Below are positions 35,772 through 45,440 of a stretch of DNA of 64,000 nt, one piece after another. The notes under the pieces are model-generated. The model was given only the letters and a program-made list of their open reading frames with translations, ran no database searches and was not told where the DNA came from. The first letter of the stretch is position 1. Each line of letters begins with the position of its first letter. The DNA lies in contig JASFYR010000012.1 in the NCBI GenBank assembly GCA_045047115.1, forward strand, positions 27,337 to 91,336, read 5' to 3'. The translations under genes were made by a program, and so were the position numbers. The stretch comes from Sulfurospirillum sp. (GTDB lineage Bacteria > Campylobacterota > Campylobacteria > Campylobacterales > Sulfurospirillaceae).

Positions 35772-36496
35772 TATAATCCTACATCCATATATCTTCTCAT
35801 CTTTTTTATCAAATTTTTATCAAATTTTGCACTAAGCATTTTTAGCGCATCATCTTCAATACACTTCCCAAAAGGATCTATTATGCAGCTAGCCGATGCC
35901 ATATCTTTATCGCTACTGTTGGAAATTATAACAAAGCATTGGTTTGCAATACCAAGAGCAATACCCAGAGCCTTCAGTTGAGACTTTCTTGGTCTACCCC
36001 AATATGATGGTATCAAAATTATATCAGAGCCTCTTAATTTTTGCCATAAATCTATAAATCTAAGCTCAAAACAGATGAGAAGTGAAACTTTTATCCCATC
36101 TATATCGATTATCTTTATATCTTCCGCATCCCCGCTTTTAAAATAGTTCTGCTCATCTCCTAACTTAAACAGTTTTGTTTTTGCCCTAGAATAAATCTCC
36201 CCTCCGTTTGCAAAAATCTTGGCGTTGTTAAAAAACTTTCCACCCTCTTTTTGTATCATTGTTAAAGATAAAATTCTCTTCTTTGAGAACTCTTTTAGCT
36301 TCGGCAATACTTTTTGTGAAAACTCTGCGCTTTTATTTAAATCGTCATAACTATAGGCACTAAGGCAGAGTTCCGGTGCCAAGACAAGAGAGTTTTTTTT
36401 GGTTTTTCGTATAAGAGAACCAAGAGTTTCAAAGTTTTCTTCAAAACTCTTGGTTGCATAATCAAATTGTAGTGAAACTAGACTAGAAATCGTCAA
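35771..36496 (-). CDS. Carbon-nitrogen hydrolase (nitrilase family)
   Basis: Catalytic triad contexts APEL, KTKLF and ICFELRF. Confidence 0.9.
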
Positions 36497-37505
36497 AAGA
36501 TAAGCTTCCTTTACTGTAATTTGCTACATTTCCCTCAAAAAAGTTTGTTTTTTGTTCATTAAACTTTGAAAAGTCGTCCACCCACTTGATGGGATGACTT
36601 GCGTTGTAGATCTTTTTAAATCCAACTGCACCTAATCTGTCATCTATGAGATAGTGTATATACTCTTCGATAATCTCATCGGTAAAGCCCATTATTTGGT
36701 TTTGTGTGATGTATTTTCCCCACTCGATTTCAAGTTCACCTGCTTTTTCAAACATATTAAGAACTTTCTTTTCTAATTCTGGTGTGAAAAGATCAGGTCT
36801 CTCTTTTCTAGTCGAGTTTATCATATTTTGAAAGAGTAGCAAGTGAGTTATCTCATCTCGTTGTATAAATCTTATCATTTGAGCACTTCCAAGCATCCTT
36901 CCTGCTCTTGCTAGGGCATAAATAGCAGTAAAGCCGGCATAGAAGTAAAGTCCTTCTAAAATTTGATTTGCGAACATTGCGAGGACTATCTTTTCATCTG
37001 TTACATCACCCGCAAGCTCTTCATAAACGCTTGAAATATAGTCATTCTTTCGCCTTAACATCTCATCATGCTTTTCCATCTCGTAGATAAGATCAGTATT
37101 ATCACAAATCGCTTCAACCATAACAGCATAAGATTTGGAATGGTTTGCTTCTTCATAAGCCTGACGAATGAGTATGGCATTTATCTCAGGAGCTGTTATA
37201 TAGGGATTTATATTGTCTGCCAGATTGTTTGTCTGAAAGCTGTCCATACTTATAAGCTGTGACCAAACAAGGTCATACATTCTTTTTTCGGCATTGGTTA
37301 GGTTTCTGTTATAATCAATAACATCTTTTGTAGTATCAACCTCTTTTGGAAACCAGGTGTTTGCCTCCATCATATCCCATAACTTCAGAGCCCATTGGTA
37401 TTTTGCCTGAGTAAAGTTTAAAATACCATGAGGATTTCCACCAAATATTCTGCGGTCATTTAGACTTTCATTTGAGTCCGGATTGTATATATGTTTTCTA
37501 TTCAT
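36483..37505 (-). CDS. nrdB: Class I ribonucleotide reductase beta subunit
   Basis: [26 protein letters not shown]...NY. Confidence 0.96.
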
Positions 37506-37549
37506 ATTTTGTGTCCTTAGTTTTTTATATTTTACCTAAAAGAACTTAA

Positions 37550-39799
37550 CTATAACTTCTCGGCTAGAAGTTCATTTACTATTTTTGGGTTTGCTTTGCC
37601 CTTTGTAGCTTTTAGCACAAGACCCACAAAGAAGCCTAGAAGTTTGGTATTGCCTGCTTTAAACTTGGCGACATTATCTGGATTTTTTTTAATTACTTCG
37701 TCAATAATAGGCAAAATCTTAGAGGGGTCACTTATTTGCACAAGTCCTTTATCTTCAACTATTTGTGCTGGATCTTCTCCGGATTTTGTCATCTCTTCAA
37801 AGATTTGTTTGGCAATTTTATTTGAAATAGTTTTATTATCAATCATTTCAACAAGCTGGGCTATCTGCTTTGCGCCAAATTTTAGCTCACTTATTTGTTT
37901 CTCTTTTATCTCCCTTGCTATCTCATTGCTCACAATATTAGCTAGACTCACCGGGCTGTTAAGAATAGACAGTGCCTCTTTGTAAAATGACGAAAGTCGT
38001 TCATCGCGAGCTAGAGTATTGGCTACCTCACTGTTTAGCCCAAGCTCTAAATTATACTTATCAAATAATCTTTTCTGGACTTCACTCATGGGTGCTACAA
38101 CACCCTCTATATGTTTCTTTTTTGCTTGAGACTTGGGTGTAGCAGGTTTGTCCGCTTCTGTCTTTTTAGCCCAAGAGTCTTTAAGACTGACAATTTTATT
38201 AAACACAGGGTTTTCATCAGCGTAATCAACTGGATCAGCATAAAAATACCCTTGTCGCTCAAACTGAAATCTCTCATCAGGTTTTTGGGTTATAACAGCA
38301 GGCTCAATAATAGCATTTTTGATAATTTGCAAAGAATTTGGGTTTATATCTTCTATTCCTTCAGGATTTTTACAAGAGAACAATCTGTCATAGAGTCTTA
38401 CTTCGATAGTTTTAGCCTCTTTGGCGCTTACCCATTGAATAGCACTTTTAACCTTGATATCACTACGGTCTGAGCCACTTTTGGATTCAGGGTAATACTC
38501 TGCTTTTATCTCTGTAATATTGCCACTGGTATCTTTTATAATTTCTTTGCAAGATATGATATAAGCATGTTTAAGTCTCACTGGTTGTTTAGGTGTAAGA
38601 CGGAAGTAGCCTTTTGGAGGATTTTCCATAAAATCTTCACGCTCAATATAGATCTCATGAGAGAAAGGCAGTGCTCTTGTACCCTCTTTGGGCACATCAT
38701 GCGGGTAGTACGAAGCATCAATCTCTTCATAACCATCATAATTTTCGATTGTAACTTTTAGTGGGTCAAGCACACACATAACGCGTGGTACTTTTTTATT
38801 TAAATCATCTCTTATGCAAAATTCTAGCTGTGAAACATCAACCATTGAATTTGCTTTTGCTATGCCTATTTGATCGCAGAAATTTAAAATAGATTGTGGA
38901 GTATAACCCCTTCTTTTATATCCGGCAATTGTAGGCAAACGAGGATCATCCCATCCACTAACTACTCCGCCTTCAACCAGCTCCAAAAGCTTCCTTTTGC
39001 TCATAACAGTGTAGTTGATATTTAGTCGTGCAAATTCATACTGATATGGTCGTGGTGGCTCAAGTTTAAGTTCGTCCAGTATCCAGTTGTAAATATCACG
39101 ATTATTTTCAAACTCCAGCGTGCAGATAGAGTGAGAAACTCCTTCGATATAATCAGACAGGCAGTGAGCAAAGTCATACATCGGATAAATAGCCCACTCA
39201 TCTCCTGCTCTAAAATGATGCACATGCCTGATACGGTACAGGAGTGGATCCCGCATTTTCATATTTGCTGCACTCATATCAATCTTTGCTCTTAAAACAT
39301 GCTCACCGTCTTTAAATTCACCTTTTTTCATCCTTCTAAAAAGGTCTAAATTCTCTTCAATACTACGCTTGGCATATTTGCTGCGTTTTCCTGCCTCTGT
39401 GATGGTTCCACGGTATTCTCGCATCTCTTCTTCGCTTAGACTATCAACATATGCCTTGCCCATTTTAATGAGTTTGAGGGCATAATCATATAGTTTAGGG
39501 AAATAATCGGAAGTAAAATATACATTATCGCCCCAGTCAAATCCAAGCCACTTTACCGCATCTTTAAGAGCCTCAACATATCTCACATCTTCTTTAGTCG
39601 GGTTTGTGTCATCCATTCTGAGGTTACAGTGACCTTTATAATCCCGTGCAATACCAAAATTTATAGCAATAGACTTGGCATGCCCAATGTGTGGGAATCC
39701 ATTGGGCTCCGGAGGGAATCTTGTGACAATCTCTTTATATTTGTCTGACTTCAAGTCCTCTTCAACTATTGCACATAAAAAATTTTTGCTTTTATTCAT
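37550..39799 (-). CDS. glnS: Glutamine-tRNA ligase with C-terminal YqeY domain
   Basis: RFPPEPNG.PHIGH, MSKRKL, FQFERQGYF; GatB/YqeY-like tail GFFVG.V.K.TKGKANP. Confidence 0.95.
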   Translation of the reverse strand: MNKSKNFLCAIVEEDLKSDKYKEIVTRFPPEPNGFPHIGHAKSIAINFGIARDYKGHCNLRMDDTNPTKEDVRYVEALKDAVKWLGFDWGDNVYFTSDYFPKLYDYALKLIKMGKAYVDSLSEEEMREYRGTITEAGKRSKYAKRSIEENLDLFRRMKKGEFKDGEHVLRAKIDMSAANMKMRDPLLYRIRHVHHFRAGDEWAIYPMYDFAHCLSDYIEGVSHSICTLEFENNRDIYNWILDELKLEPPRPYQYEFARLNINYTVMSKRKLLELVEGGVVSGWDDPRLPTIAGYKRRGYTPQSILNFCDQIGIAKANSMVDVSQLEFCIRDDLNKKVPRVMCVLDPLKVTIENYDGYEEIDASYYPHDVPKEGTRALPFSHEIYIEREDFMENPPKGYFRLTPKQPVRLKHAYIISCKEIIKDTSGNITEIKAEYYPESKSGSDRSDIKVKSAIQWVSAKEAKTIEVRLYDRLFSCKNPEGIEDINPNSLQIIKNAIIEPAVITQKPDERFQFERQGYFYADPVDYADENPVFNKIVSLKDSWAKKTEADKPATPKSQAKKKHIEGVVAPMSEVQKRLFDKYNLELGLNSEVANTLARDERLSSFYKEALSILNSPVSLANIVSNEIAREIKEKQISELKFGAKQIAQLVEMIDNKTISNKIAKQIFEEMTKSGEDPAQIVEDKGLVQISDPSKILPIIDEVIKKNPDNVAKFKAGNTKLLGFFVGLVLKATKGKANPKIVNELLAEKL

Positions 39800-39928
39800 T
39801 ATTATTAAACCTTTGGATATATTTTTTGCACTATTTAACAATTTTTTAGTTGTGAAATTATATCATAAAACTGCTTTAAAGCTTGAAACAAGGGTGTTTG
39901 TTTTTCAGGAGCAACTAGGCAAAATAAA

Positions 39929-40624
39929 CTAAAATTCTCGAAAATCTATTTTAATTTTGTTGTTTAATTTTAATATATCTATTTGTCTGTGTTGTTCATC
40001 TATCAGGCCTATATTATCATCTACATGTAGATAGTTTTGCAGATAGTAGGTCTTTGTGTAGTTTCTTGTATGTAAATCATCTATTATTCTATTTATATCA
40101 TTTTCGTTTAGTAATCCGGAGTGCACGGTTGTTCTTGTTTCAAAGGGAAAATCTGTATGGATTAGAAAGTCCAGTGTCTCTTGAAAATCATCAAAGTTTC
40201 TGTTTTGTGTTATATTTTCAAATTTCTCTTTTGGTGCCTTGTAATCAAGGGCTATGTAGTCGACCAATCTATTTTGTACCAAGTGTTTTAATAACTTTGG
40301 ATTTGTCCCGTTTGTGTCTATTTTTATCTTGAAGCCCAAATCTTTAATCTTTTTGCACAACTCTTCAAGGTGCGGGTAGAGTGTGCATTCTCCACCACTC
40401 AGTACGATTCCTGTAAGTCTGTTTTGCCTGGTTTTTAGAAAGTTGAGTGCTTCTTGTATGCTTATTGTTCCTTCGCCAAAGACGATAGGCGTGTTGTAAC
40501 AGTAGGGGCATCTCATATTGCATTTGCAAAACCAAAAGATTGACGCTAGATTCTCGGGAAAATCCAGCGTCGTAAATCTTGTTATGTCGTATAGCGGCTT
40601 ATCTGTTAGAAAGTCTCTCGACAA
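39929..40624 (-). CDS. nrdG: Anaerobic RNR activating radical-SAM enzyme
   Basis: CNMRCPYCYN, SGGEC, DTNG, DYKAP, RTT; start uncertain (TTG 40624 or ATG 40663). Confidence 0.92.
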   Translation of the reverse strand: MSRDFLTDKPLYDITRFTTLDFPENLASIFWFCKCNMRCPYCYNTPIVFGEGTISIQEALNFLKTRQNRLTGIVLSGGECTLYPHLEELCKKIKDLGFKIKIDTNGTNPKLLKHLVQNRLVDYIALDYKAPKEKFENITQNRNFDDFQETLDFLIHTDFPFETRTTVHSGLLNENDINRIIDDLHTRNYTKTYYLQNYLHVDDNIGLIDEQHRQIDILKLNNKIKIDFREF

Positions 40625-40763
40625 ACTGAACTCTCTCTTTATGCTCGCCTGTCTTTCCGACATTGAAGCTTTCTACTGGCCTATGGTAACCCATAACTCT
40701 AGTGTAGACGATACATTTTGTTCGTTCGCCTTCCAGTCTTTTAAGCAGTTCGTTTTTGCTCAT
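40599..40763 (-). CDS. 54-aa stand-alone glycyl-radical domain of class III RNR, absent from the ORF track
   Basis: MSKNELLKRLEGERTKCIVYTRVMGYHRPVESFNVGKTGEHKERVQFVERLSNR; AAAGGAG RBS; RVMGY radical motif. Confidence 0.92.
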   Translation of the reverse strand: MSKNELLKRLEGERTKCIVYTRVMGYHRPVESFNVGKTGEHKERVQFVERLSNR

Positions 40764-42861
40764 CTATCTCTCCTTTATGTTTTTCTATCAGTTCTTTATC
40801 ACAATATGGACAATACTCATGTTCACCACTTATGTAACCATGTTTTTCGCACACAGAAAAAACCGGTGTTATGGTCAGATACGGCATTCTATAGTTTGAA
40901 ATGACATTTTTTACCATCTGCCTACACGCTTCTGTTGAACTTATCCTCTCTTTCATATAGAGGTGAAGAACTGTCCCTCCTGTATATTCACACTGCAGAT
41001 CATCTTGTAAATCAAGCGCTTCAAAAGGGTCGTCAGTAAAATCAGCTGGCAGTTGAGAAGAGTTTGTATAGTAAATATTATCTCCCATTCCTGCTTGCAT
41101 GATATCTGGGTATCTCTTCTTGTCCTCTTTGGCAAATCTATATGTCGTACCCTCTGCCGGAGTTGCTTCGAGGTTGTAGAGATTGCCTGTCTCTTCTTGA
41201 TAACCAAGCATCTTTTGACGCATAAAATCTAACAACTCTGTAGCAAATTTCATTCCAAATTCATCAGATATGTTGTGTTTGTCATTTGTAAAATTTCTTA
41301 TCATCTCATTTACGCCGTTTACCCCGATAGTAGAAAAGTGGTTGTTAAAACCGGGTAGATATCTAGCGGTATATGGATACAGGCCTCTGTCATACATCTC
41401 TTGCACAAATACTCTTTTTTTCTCAAGTGTTGATTTGGCTAAATCCATCAAGTGCTCAACCTCTTTGAATATTGCTTTTTTATTTCCCTTGTTTAGATAT
41501 CCGAGTCTCGCCATGTTTATAGTTACAACACCGATACTTCCTGTCATCTCTGCACTTCCAAAGAGCCCTCCCCCTCTTTTTAAAAGCTCCCGCAAGTCTA
41601 GTTGCAGTCTGCAACACATGCTTCTGACATTGCCGGGCTTGTAGGCTTTGGGGTTCTCTATGAGATTGCCCTTTTCATCTTTCATATATTGGCTTCCTAT
41701 GAAGTTTTGAAAGTAGGATGAACCGATTTTTGCTGTATTTTCAAATAGTACATCAGTGTTTTCTCCATACCAGTCAAAATCCTCTGTTATATTTACCGTC
41801 GGTATAGGGAAAGTAAAAGGCTGTCCGGTTCTATCGCCTTCTGTCATTACTTCATAGTATGCTTTATTGATGAGATTCATCTCTTTTTGAAAATCTTTGT
41901 ATGTTAGATTTTCGAGTTTGTCAACACCCCTTCTTTTTGCCTCTTTTTCCAAGGCCTCATCTTCTATCTCTTTAAAAAGGTGTATATCTCTACATGTAGG
42001 AGTCTGATCAGCTAAATCACTAGGCACTGTCCAATCAATCGTGATATTGGTAAAAGGACTCTGCCCCCATCTTGCAGGAACATTCAGGTTGTAAACAAAA
42101 CTTACTATTGCTTTTTTTATCTCATCATAAGGTAACCGGTCCTTAAATACATAAGGAGCCAGATATGTATCGAAAGAGCTAAAAGCCTGAGCTCCCGCCC
42201 ATTCACTTTGTAAGATGCCTAAAAAATTTGCCATCTGTCCCAGTGCTTCTCTAAAGTGTTTTGGCGGACGAGACTCTACTCTGCCTCTGACGCCGTTAAA
42301 TCCTTCGTTGAGTAGTGCTCTTAGACTCCATCCGGCGCAATATGCAGTAAGGCAGTCTAGGTCATGTATGTGATAGTCTCCGTTTCTGTGGGCAAAGCCC
42401 TCTTCTTTTGAGTATATCTTGTCTAGCCAATAGTTTGCTATTATTTTACCAGCCGTATTGTTTACCAGACCGGCATTTGAATAACCGGTATTTGAGTTTG
42501 CTTTGATACGCCAGTCACTTTTGTTGATATACTCTTCTATGGTTTGAGTTGAGTTGACAAAAGTTGTATCTTCATTGAGTCCTGCTACATGTTCCCTTTG
42601 CATCTTATGAGTGTGGCGATAAATCATGAAAGAGCGCATAACATCAAAATATCTAGCCTTATAGAGCGCAACCTCTATCATATCTTGTATGTCTTCTACG
42701 GCGGCAGCTCTCTTTTTCTCCATTTTGGAGACGATGGAGTTAAAAACACTCTCATCATAAGTTACACCTTCACTTTTAAATGCTTTTTTGATAGCATCTT
42801 GTATCTTGAAGGCTTGAAAATCTTCTGTAGTACCGTCCCGTTTTAAGACTTTTTCTAGCAT
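40741..42861 (-). CDS. nrdD: Class III ribonucleoside-triphosphate reductase (ATP cone and catalytic barrel, no Gly-radical loop)
   Basis: ATP cone; HIHDLD, GAQAFS, RSMCCRL, EATPAEG, CEKHG..CPYC. Confidence 0.95.
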   Translation of the reverse strand: MLEKVLKRDGTTEDFQAFKIQDAIKKAFKSEGVTYDESVFNSIVSKMEKKRAAAVEDIQDMIEVALYKARYFDVMRSFMIYRHTHKMQREHVAGLNEDTTFVNSTQTIEEYINKSDWRIKANSNTGYSNAGLVNNTAGKIIANYWLDKIYSKEEGFAHRNGDYHIHDLDCLTAYCAGWSLRALLNEGFNGVRGRVESRPPKHFREALGQMANFLGILQSEWAGAQAFSSFDTYLAPYVFKDRLPYDEIKKAIVSFVYNLNVPARWGQSPFTNITIDWTVPSDLADQTPTCRDIHLFKEIEDEALEKEAKRRGVDKLENLTYKDFQKEMNLINKAYYEVMTEGDRTGQPFTFPIPTVNITEDFDWYGENTDVLFENTAKIGSSYFQNFIGSQYMKDEKGNLIENPKAYKPGNVRSMCCRLQLDLRELLKRGGGLFGSAEMTGSIGVVTINMARLGYLNKGNKKAIFKEVEHLMDLAKSTLEKKRVFVQEMYDRGLYPYTARYLPGFNNHFSTIGVNGVNEMIRNFTNDKHNISDEFGMKFATELLDFMRQKMLGYQEETGNLYNLEATPAEGTTYRFAKEDKKRYPDIMQAGMGDNIYYTNSSQLPADFTDDPFEALDLQDDLQCEYTGGTVLHLYMKERISSTEACRQMVKNVISNYRMPYLTITPVFSVCEKHGYISGEHEYCPYCDKELIEKHKGEIDEQKRTA

Positions 42862-43073
42862 AGTAATCCTGTATAATATTTTACTAGGATTATATAGTAT
42901 TGATATTTAGTTAAAACTTAAAAATTATAGTGTTATTTTTTTGTCACAAGCAATAAGAGTTGATTTTAGAGATATAAAACTTAATGAATTATATCCCTAA
43001 AATATCAGTTTATATGAGATTTTATTAATTTAAAATTTAAAATTTAAAATTAATAATTATTTTTAAGGTATTC

Positions 43074-45440
43074 TTACTGGCAACCCTCACACTCCATGCT
43101 TCTGTCTGCTACATCGAGTTTATTCTCGGGAGATTGACTTCTAAGGTAGTATGTTGATTTGATGCCTAGTTTCCATGCCAACATATAGATGTCATTTAGG
43201 TATTTTCCACTTGCCTTATCCAGTGTTAGAAATATATTTAAACTCTGTCCTTGATCTATCCATTTTTGTCTGATAGCGCCAGCTTTTATGAGTACTCTTT
43301 GATCGAGATCATAGGCTGGGGTATAAAAGTTCCAGGTGTTTGGATTGAGTTTTGGTACAACAACAGGAATCATACCTGAAAGATTCTCTTCAAACCATTT
43401 TCTTTTATAGACTGGCTCTATAGTTTGGGTGGTACCAACAAGGATCGATATAGAGCTTGTCGGTGCTATGGCCATAAGGTAGCCGTTTCTCATACCGTTT
43501 TTCTTAACTTTACCTCTAAGCTCTTCCCAATCATACACTTGTCCAAACAAGCCTCCTCGATCAACAAGTTTTTTAGCCTCTTCATTCGCTGAGTCTATAG
43601 GAAAAATACCTCTGCTCCATTTGGAGCCTTCAAAGTCAGGATAGGTACCTTTTTCTGTGGCAAGGTTTGAGGATGCTTTGATGATATTGTAGCTTACTGC
43701 TTCCATGATTTCGTCTATTTTACTAAAGTGCTCATAGCTTCCCCATTTGATACCATTGACTGCCAGCATTTCTGCCTCGCCCATTACACCTAGTCCTATA
43801 GCGCGTGACTTTAGGTTTGTGTGTTTTACTTTTGCGTGAGGATAAAAATTGAGATCTATGACATTATCTAACATTCTTGTTGCCGTTGGGATTACCCTTT
43901 CGATATCCTCTTTTGTATTTATTTTAGAGAGGTTTATACTAGCTAGATTGCATACAGCAGTTTTGCCCTCTATCATCTCTTTTTCAACAATAAAGATATT
44001 TTTATCATTCAAGCTGTCTAATGCTGTAATTTTCTTTGCGTCTTTTTCGATATGGCCATTTACTATCACTTTTTCGTGTTCGTCAAATGTGTCATAGGTT
44101 CCATCGTCATATGTAACTTTGATTTTGTAGTGATTTGGTTCAGTATTTTGAAATATCTCTGTACAGAGATTTGAACTTCTGATGATACCGCTGTGGTTGT
44201 TTGGGTTTGCTCTGTTTGCATTGTCTTTAAAGCAGAGAAATGGACTACCGCTTTCAAAGTAGCTAAGAAGTATCTTTTTCCATAACTCTTTTGCTTTTAT
44301 ATGCTCTTTTGATATATCCTCATCTCTCTCATATTTCAAATATTTTTCTTCAAACTCATCTCCATACAGATGTGGCAAGTCAGTCACTTCTGCCGGGTCA
44401 AAAAGTGTCCAGATACCATCCTCTTCCACTCTTTTCATAAATATATCATTTATCCAAAGCGCTGGAAAAAGATCATGTGCACGACGACGCTCTTCACCAG
44501 AGTTTTTCTTTAGATCAAGAAAGTCTGATATATCCATATGCCACGGCTCAAGATAGACTGCAATTGCACCTTTTCTTGTGCCCAATTGGTCAACTGCTAT
44601 GGCTATATCGTTTGTTATCTTCAAGAATGGTATGATGCCTCCGGCAGCGTTTTTATGTCCGTCTATCATTCCACCCATTGAGCGAACAAGATTCCAGTCC
44701 CAACCGATTCCCCCTCCAAATTTACTTAAAAGAGCCATCTCTTTGTATGAGTCGAAAATGCCTTCTATATTGTCCGGAGTACTTCCTATGTAGCAAGAAC
44801 TTAGCTGGTGTCTTGGCGTCCTTGCATTTGAGAGTGTTGGTGTTGCTAGCATGACCTCAAATTGAGAAATTAGATCATAAAATTTCTTTGCCCAATCTTG
44901 AGAGTTAAGCTCATTTTGTGCTAAAAACATGGCTATTGCCATAAACATATGTTGGGGAAGTTCTATTGGAACACCCTGTGCGTTTTTTATGAGGTATCTA
45001 TCATGCAAGGTCTTTATGCCAAGATATGTAAACTGTAAATCTCTTTCTGGTTTAAGGTAGGCATCTAGATCATCCAAGTCGTATTTGTCTTTAAGTCCTA
45101 GAAGTATCCTGCCCTTTTTTTCGCCTCTTTCGAAATACTCTTTCAAATGACAATAGCCTGTAAATTTATTTACTTTGTGATATAGATCATACAAGAAGAG
45201 TCTAGCTGCGACAAATGTCCAATTTGGTCTGTCTATATCTATCTTGTCAACAGCAGTTTTAATGAGTGTTTTTTGTATCTCTTTGGTTGTAATTTTATCA
45301 CGAAATTGTATCTTTGCATCGACTTCAAGTTCGCTTTGGCTTACATTTTCTAGTCCCTCTATGGCTGAACTTGTATATTTTTGTATTTTTGAAATATCCA
45401 ATGGCTCAATTCGGCCATTTCTTTTTTGAACTGTTAACAT
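43074..45440 (-). CDS. nrdA: Class Ia ribonucleotide reductase alpha subunit
   Basis: ATP cone, ATPT, QLSSC, SSNLCTEI, APTSS, TYYLR, C-terminal CEGCQ. Confidence 0.97.
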   Translation of the reverse strand: MLTVQKRNGRIEPLDISKIQKYTSSAIEGLENVSQSELEVDAKIQFRDKITTKEIQKTLIKTAVDKIDIDRPNWTFVAARLFLYDLYHKVNKFTGYCHLKEYFERGEKKGRILLGLKDKYDLDDLDAYLKPERDLQFTYLGIKTLHDRYLIKNAQGVPIELPQHMFMAIAMFLAQNELNSQDWAKKFYDLISQFEVMLATPTLSNARTPRHQLSSCYIGSTPDNIEGIFDSYKEMALLSKFGGGIGWDWNLVRSMGGMIDGHKNAAGGIIPFLKITNDIAIAVDQLGTRKGAIAVYLEPWHMDISDFLDLKKNSGEERRRAHDLFPALWINDIFMKRVEEDGIWTLFDPAEVTDLPHLYGDEFEEKYLKYERDEDISKEHIKAKELWKKILLSYFESGSPFLCFKDNANRANPNNHSGIIRSSNLCTEIFQNTEPNHYKIKVTYDDGTYDTFDEHEKVIVNGHIEKDAKKITALDSLNDKNIFIVEKEMIEGKTAVCNLASINLSKINTKEDIERVIPTATRMLDNVIDLNFYPHAKVKHTNLKSRAIGLGVMGEAEMLAVNGIKWGSYEHFSKIDEIMEAVSYNIIKASSNLATEKGTYPDFEGSKWSRGIFPIDSANEEAKKLVDRGGLFGQVYDWEELRGKVKKNGMRNGYLMAIAPTSSISILVGTTQTIEPVYKRKWFEENLSGMIPVVVPKLNPNTWNFYTPAYDLDQRVLIKAGAIRQKWIDQGQSLNIFLTLDKASGKYLNDIYMLAWKLGIKSTYYLRSQSPENKLDVADRSMECEGCQ

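Follow-up and report, generated by a model that had tools for sequence, protein, structure and literature searches.

Where does an enzyme keep its radical when its chain ends before the loop that ought to hold it? The question is raised by nrdD, the gene for a class III ribonucleotide reductase (RNR), in a 64,000-nucleotide (nt) stretch of a Sulfurospirillum sp. genome (contig JASFYR010000012.1; hereafter the window). The barrel, the active-site cysteines, the zinc site and the NrdG activase by which the class is recognised are all encoded there, but the RxxGY loop is not on the same chain. From the sequence evidence we consider it likely that this RNR is made from two genes and works as a two-chain enzyme, with its glycyl radical on a separate peptide of 54 residues. 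The split class III RNR is real, old, widespread and annotated in databases, and is apparently undescribed: in the full-text literature searched, from which subscription papers are mostly missing, a radical peptide separate from NrdD is nowhere described, and the splits that do appear in these texts are those of NrdJa/b and of phage genes broken by introns or inteins.

Body, peptide and the junction between them

The nrdD body (40741..42861; minus strand, like all features given here) has 706 amino acids and is of the PRK08270 type. It scores 546 bits against PF13597, 1101.6 against NF006126 (cut-off 548) and 433.9 against TIGR02487, with the barrel above the curated cut-off. An ATP-cone profile matches residues 4-86 (42604..42852), and the SMCCR finger-loop motif contains the MCCR that is given for NrdDh4 (PMC4493059). 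The active-site cysteines, C175 on the substrate side and C416 and C417 of the finger loop, are invariant together with R418 in 36/36 aligned cores, as is the zinc site C671-xx-H674-G-Y...C684-P-x-C687 (40801..40851), and split bodies without exception keep N122 and N124, the asparagines of the NxN flap. The chain closes with ...CEKHGY...CPYC-DKELIEKHKGEIDEQKRTA, its tail (DKEL...; 40744..40800) running to a stop 19 residues past the last zinc cysteine. No RxxG[YF] occurs anywhere in the 706 residues, as the original prediction, made from the letters of the window, had claimed.

The missing segment lies on a small open reading frame (ORF; 40599..40763) that overlaps the last 23 nt of nrdD in the +1 frame. 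Its ATG is immediately preceded by an in-frame TAG and stands 6 nt behind a Shine-Dalgarno-like AAAGGAG (40770..40776), itself within the nrdD coding sequence, so that the overlapping ORF with start signals of its own was also correctly seen. The 54-residue product has a predicted N-terminal helix followed by RxxCxVYTRVMGYHRPxxxFNxGKxGEHxxRxxF. The Pfam NRDD profile (PF13597) is shared out in full between the two proteins, positions 2-530 matching the large ORF and 530-562 the small one, and in this genome, which is 100% complete, body and peptide are the sole two NRDD matches. The pyruvate formate-lyase-type Gly_radical domain (PF01228) was matched neither on the peptide nor elsewhere in the genome. 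Since there is no other radical loop in the genome and profile coverage is complementary, the radical is likely to sit on the peptide, where Gly25 (40689..40691) is the predicted site by alignment via a naturally fused relative. The peptide gene is overlapped by nrdG (39929..40663), which encodes an activase of the NrdG2 type, a radical S-adenosylmethionine protein (TIGR02495, 183.5 bits; cut-off 131.15); the true nrdG start may be a TTG at 40624, behind AAAGAGAGAG.

A gene that ends early beside an overlapping fragment could be an assembly error or a dying gene, and a short overlap could be the site of a programmed frameshift that restores one chain. A scan of GTDB genomes with the peptide confirmed at least 519 relatives, and the analysis covered the best 80 of these; the query included the N-terminal part, so this set is biased towards split forms. 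The closest named relatives among the matches listed are Campylobacterota, and fused forms make up 0/80. The end of an nrdD gene lies upstream of the peptide gene in 56 of the 80 loci, is absent within 1.2 kb in 23 and is cut off by a contig edge in one. In the 56, the gap between body and peptide ranges from -31 to +852 nt; the 54 with gaps below 400 nt show frame offsets 0, 1 and 2 in 14, 16 and 24 cases. An ATGA overlap forms the junction in 18/56, all 56 split cores carry a tail of 9-30 residues after the zinc site that starts D[EKDA][ED/A][LI], and a Shine-Dalgarno-like word precedes the peptide start in 77/79 related loci.

One or two genes separate body and peptide in five cases (L033, L064, L078, G178, G179). 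The inserts of the first three, from Arcobacteraceae- and Sulfurovum-like genomes (L033:3145-3970, L064:3171-3981, L078:3666-4004), share a gene of about 110 codons, accompanied in two by one of about 170, and these have no NCBIfam match at 1e-20. Some Campylobacter genomes have the genes unlinked, with peptide and nrdG together and away from the body: the pair is 95 kb from the body in G102 (9 kb and 104 kb on contig C1 of two), 68 kb from it in G060, and on a different contig in G200 and G092. These four genomes cannot make a fused chain, and the bodies have no loop. Where Campylobacter genes are unlinked (L087, L090, L092, L126, L130, L133), a thiol peroxidase gene is the divergent neighbour of the peptide-nrdG pair.

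A programmed frameshift or stop read-through as a general mechanism is therefore refuted, and we hold it to be highly improbable. There is an A-run (CAAAAAC) within the 23-nt overlap and a single in-frame TAA in some relatives, but the three frame offsets, the gaps of up to 852 nt, the inserted genes, the distances of tens of kilobases and the near-universal Shine-Dalgarno-like word leave no conserved offset or overlap on which it could act. Assembly error or gene decay is likewise refuted, to the point of being negligible. The junction recurs identically in independent genomes, with the same -23 overlap in L001 and L002 (96% and 93% peptide identity); a 177-nt contig piece from a run of other organisms covers 40708-40884 with 26 substitutions, no gaps and no indel; and the split is present in complete RefSeq records. 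Both body and peptide are under strong purifying selection: for the 34-codon peptide core the ratio of non-synonymous to synonymous polymorphism (pN/pS) is 0.123 when all pairs of 72 distinct chromosomal sequences are compared and 0.036 in the 137 closest pairs, and RVMGY is 100% conserved among the 72. It is conservation, not the source reads, that establishes the split as real. The earlier claims that this is a true split, and that the radical-glycine loop is on a separately translated protein, are thus borne out.

How the two chains might work together can be judged from single-chain relatives. The 54-residue peptide aligns, at a probability of 99.3, with residues 682-724 of L110, a fused relative in which RVMGY aligns in turn with RIVGY of Thermotoga maritima NrdD and RITGY of Prevotella copri NrdD. 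The radical glycines of these enzymes are Gly621 (PMC4493059) and Gly711 (PMC11226230). A model of L110 has a mean predicted local distance difference test score (pLDDT) of 85.4, its peptide-equivalent segment forms a hairpin and a helix, with residues 691-720 at 81-85, and its best matches are class III structures; the modelled fold speaks for likeness to solved single-chain enzymes and carries no evidence on binding in trans. A sequence search of the Protein Data Bank with the peptide alone gave 0 matches. In P. copri NrdD the NxN flap has contacts with the residue that follows the radical glycine and with the C-terminal helix, and the radical domain is mobile (PMC11226230). By extension, NrdG would place the radical on Gly25, and the peptide would dock on the barrel of the body in the way of the C-terminal loop of single-chain enzymes, bringing Gly25 beside the finger-loop cysteine and Tyr26 and the C-terminal helix against the flap. 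Oxygen would then cut the peptide only, and the body, undamaged in other respects, would be revived by fresh peptide. The extra short helices on the body tail and the peptide N-terminus probably help to keep the chains together.

Distribution and history of split and fused forms

An unbiased count came from a family search of 201 Campylobacterota genomes. NrdD was found in 109, comprising 14 of a different fused type, one partial and 94 full-length cores of the split-locus type; the genome table shows a fused enzyme in two of the 94 (G189, G085) and, in the other 92, a chain that ends at the zinc site or an in-frame stop, and the DNA was read directly for about 30 of the 92. Two others listed as fused (G012, G143) were rejected on account of an in-frame stop in their DNA. 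The split is the norm in Campylobacterota (92/94). The 14 genomes with the other fused NrdD (L095-L108; genus g13 and G007) have an enzyme ending RRITGY and a short NrdG, while the split type is absent, which suggests replacement by transfer.

The split occurs also in Alpha-, Beta- and Gammaproteobacteria. RefSeq plasmid records from Sulfuricurvum, Sulfuricystis, Bradyrhizobium, Cupriavidus and Thiothrix have the body-peptide-nrdG layout with the small gene labelled nrdD, so that similar splits are indeed already in databases, as had been surmised. Fused relatives come from Geoalkalibacter and from two phages of anaerobes (Oceanotoga, Clostridium). Among the best 150 representatives at 50% identity, 61 end after the zinc site, 55 are fused and 34 are unclassified by zinc pattern, 'split' being judged here from proteins alone as no radical loop past the zinc site; 34 of the 150 (9 aberrant, 25 unmatched by the zinc pattern) were left out of the tree. 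The most distant relatives (P0121-P0270) are of 800-1900 residues and have large insertions, probably inteins, that recur at the same sites, and several fused ones (P0148, P0151, P0179) have a C-terminal glutaredoxin-like CPNC extension.

Split and fused states are interleaved in a 149-row tree, and in a quick tree of 30 rows the two fused Campylobacterota enzymes fall inside a (starred) clade of 20 split rows. Approximately unbiased (AU) tests on the 30-row tree, with groups picked after the first tree was seen, rejected a clade of these 20 rows (p 6e-5), a single clade of all 22 split rows (1e-4) and the placing of the two fused rows together (p 0.005). As the fused rows nest in the split clade and the alternative trees are rejected, the split was probably ancestral in Campylobacterota, with at least two re-fusions. 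The DEEL tail of the body and most of the first helix of the peptide are missing from both re-fused relatives, L109 and L110, a shared loss which suggests that tail and helix serve the two-chain state. The re-fused NrdD of G189 (L109:646-3324) has 893 residues and two ATP-cone matches.

A hint that the split enzyme functions comes from Cupriavidus necator H16. Its NrdDG is essential for complete denitrification (PMC2864759, citing Siedow 1999), and the same source lists the Cupriavidus metallidurans genes as Rmet_5137 and Rmet_5139, with one number skipped. The H16 locus on pHG1 (L228:1974-4347), the one examined in this organism, is split: a body of 676 residues and 76.2 kDa without RxxG[YF] is followed by the gene for a 66-residue peptide. 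Since this locus is split and its NrdDG is essential for denitrification, the split enzyme probably works in vivo. Gly650 of the pHG1 body is the glycine of the zinc-site CPTHGY and lies in no radical loop. Siedow's 1999 work reportedly described an NrdD of 76.2 kDa and put forward G650 as the radical site; in that case a G650 mutation more likely damaged the zinc site, and the split suggests that the H16 work be re-read.

Oxygen, regulation and phage copies

Why should the split be kept? The original prediction saw in it an adaptation of a microaerophile, in which oxygen destroys the peptide alone and a new one is swapped onto the surviving body, at a price of 54 residues instead of about 760. 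This is compatible with the two-chain reading, to which it adds a reason, and it is plausible from the chemistry and the analogy with YfiD, though we would put it slightly below an even chance. In glycyl-radical enzymes the cut made by oxygen falls at the radical glycine (PMC2795772, PMC5704485). Those split loci that have organism names come from Proteobacteria and Campylobacterota that use oxygen or denitrify, whereas the three named fused enzymes are those of Geoalkalibacter and the phages of Oceanotoga and Clostridium; the named cases are few and clustered in phylogeny. The peptide occurs by itself in phages, much as Y06I does in T4, and the peptide-nrdG pair stands beside the thiol peroxidase gene in several Campylobacter. 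Against this, five genomes of one Campylobacterota family (f5) gave no haem-copper oxidase match, in a search positive in 5/5 others, and all five are split, while all three fused-NrdD genomes tested (G189, G085, G123) have the oxidase. The split thus extends beyond the oxygen-respiring Campylobacterota, and these can also do without it. The f5 genomes may still meet oxygen, since a bd oxidase and the beta subunit of a class I RNR are present in all four that were tested.

It is also possible, although we rather doubt it, that the fission is nearly neutral, the linker past the zinc site tolerating a break so that the gene splits and rejoins repeatedly while the chains stay bound for life. The interleaving in the 149-row tree, the re-fusions in L109 and L110 and the rejection of a single split clade (AU p about 1e-4) fit this account. 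It sits less well with the persistence of the split in 92/94 Campylobacterota cores, even though in-frame versions are one base from fusion, or with purifying selection on lone phage copies, which suggests that the free peptide does something. Regulation offers a further and unlikely explanation, in which the cell would control how much enzyme is active by making or degrading the peptide independently of the body, and phage copies would adjust or poison the synthesis of deoxyribonucleoside triphosphates (dNTPs) in the host. The peptide stays with nrdG in 4/4 unlinked genomes examined, the Sulfurospirillum genome has no match to the repressor NrdR, and the radical domain is the mobile, regulated element of P. 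copri NrdD (PMC11226230); most loci, however, are one translationally coupled operon, as the ATGA overlaps attest, and no separate peptide promoter stands out (12 promoter-like sites against 10.6 expected).

Several points weigh against a two-chain enzyme with its radical on the peptide. On its own the peptide gives a poor fold (pLDDT 58.2), in which residues 3-11 form a helix and a hairpin has its turn at Gly25. A peptide that carries a radical while free has to be kept in check, a point discussed for YfiD (PMC8683613), and no such control was identified here. The split is dispensable, to judge from the re-fusion of at least two lineages, and lifestyle does not track it within Campylobacterota. 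In the Sulfurospirillum genome alone, a +1 shift within the 23-nt overlap could yield a minor fused product.

The minus-strand order in the window is nrdA (45440-43074), nrdD, the 54-residue ORF, nrdG, glnS and nrdB, a single cluster (36483-45440) in which the class III genes and glnS lie between the class Ia genes nrdA and nrdB. A 13-pair hairpin followed by T's (40542-40571), about 30 nt past the peptide stop and within nrdG, could reduce nrdG expression; terminator matches are near chance (4 against 2.2).

A viral scan with the peptide gave 292 confirmed matches, of which the best 80, including many near-copies, were kept (L145-L224). Neither nrdD nor nrdG is present in the available DNA of 79/80, 32 of them with short flanks; the viral peptides keep RxMGY and have a pN/pS of 0.060 in close pairs. 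The next gene is called by PHROG as an endolysin, lysozyme or amidase, of four unrelated families, in 27/80 loci and is DUF5675 in 23 more, 22 of these behind a holin; five loci adjoin a Mu-type transposition gene. Placement in lysis cassettes thus looks recurrent, with at least five unrelated downstream families. A search of a cultured-phage collection with the peptide gave no match at E 1e-3. Lone peptide genes in prophages (L027, L028, L040, L127, L128, L134, L135, L138, L139) also sit in lysis cassettes, and prophage and viral copies often overlap both the holin stop and the endolysin or DUF5675 start. DUF5675 / phrog_1501 proteins (L148:6158-6577 and relatives), which hold the endolysin position in those 22 of the 80 loci, may on this placement be an unannotated endolysin family.

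These strands can be joined in a single reading that we advance tentatively, leaning a little towards doubt. A widespread branch of class III RNRs would carry its radical on a freely exchangeable cofactor protein of about 50 residues, the first glycyl-radical enzyme built without its own loop, and oxygen would burn the peptide alone. Temperate phages would have acquired the peptide gene on many occasions, often within lysis cassettes, feeding or timing the host's anaerobic dNTP supply. In C. necator H16, the one member studied genetically, the radical would have been ascribed to a glycine of the zinc site because the small gene escaped notice.

Relation to known systems

A natural two-chain enzyme makes oxygen repair in class III RNRs directly testable, and the 54-residue peptide is a ready substrate for studies of NrdG. 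There is also a warning: the large gene alone, expressed or used for complementation, would give dead enzyme.

The comparison set consists of single-chain NrdD with NrdG (T. maritima 4COI/4U3E, an NrdDh enzyme; P. copri 8P23; phage T4 1H78). With these the split enzyme shares the barrel, ATP-cone, NxN flap, two-cysteine finger loop, zinc site, RxxGY loop and NrdG; it differs in having the RxxGY loop and C-terminal helix on a separate gene that can be unlinked, and short extra helices on both new ends. The two-coding-sequence loci in RefSeq (C. necator H16 pHG1 WP_011154155 and WP_011154154; Sulfuricurvum kujiense; Bradyrhizobium ottawaense) have the same layout and no essential difference, automatic annotation calling both pieces reductase with the two-chain enzyme unnoted.

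NrdJa and NrdJb, the class II RNR of Pseudomonas aeruginosa, are likewise a natural, heritable two-gene RNR with a separate C-terminal part (PMC5704485, PMC9669993). They are of another class, and what their separate part carries is not the radical but a zinc finger and reducing cysteines.

GrcA/YfiD and T4 Y06I, the spare parts of pyruvate formate-lyase, are small stand-alone glycyl-radical domains, thought to act in trans and carried by phages (PMC8683613). A June 2026 review that does not cover class III RNRs in depth knows such spare parts for formate lyases only (PMC13450708). The NrdD peptide, too, has a stand-alone gene, as the unlinked loci and lone phage copies attest, and would act in trans; unlike GrcA it has no PF01228 match, and it has 54 residues against 127. 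The partner differs as well. GrcA repairs a full-length enzyme after cleavage of that enzyme's own radical loop, whereas the split NrdD body never has one, so that the likeness to a GrcA-style spare fails: the peptide is the only radical loop that this enzyme possesses.

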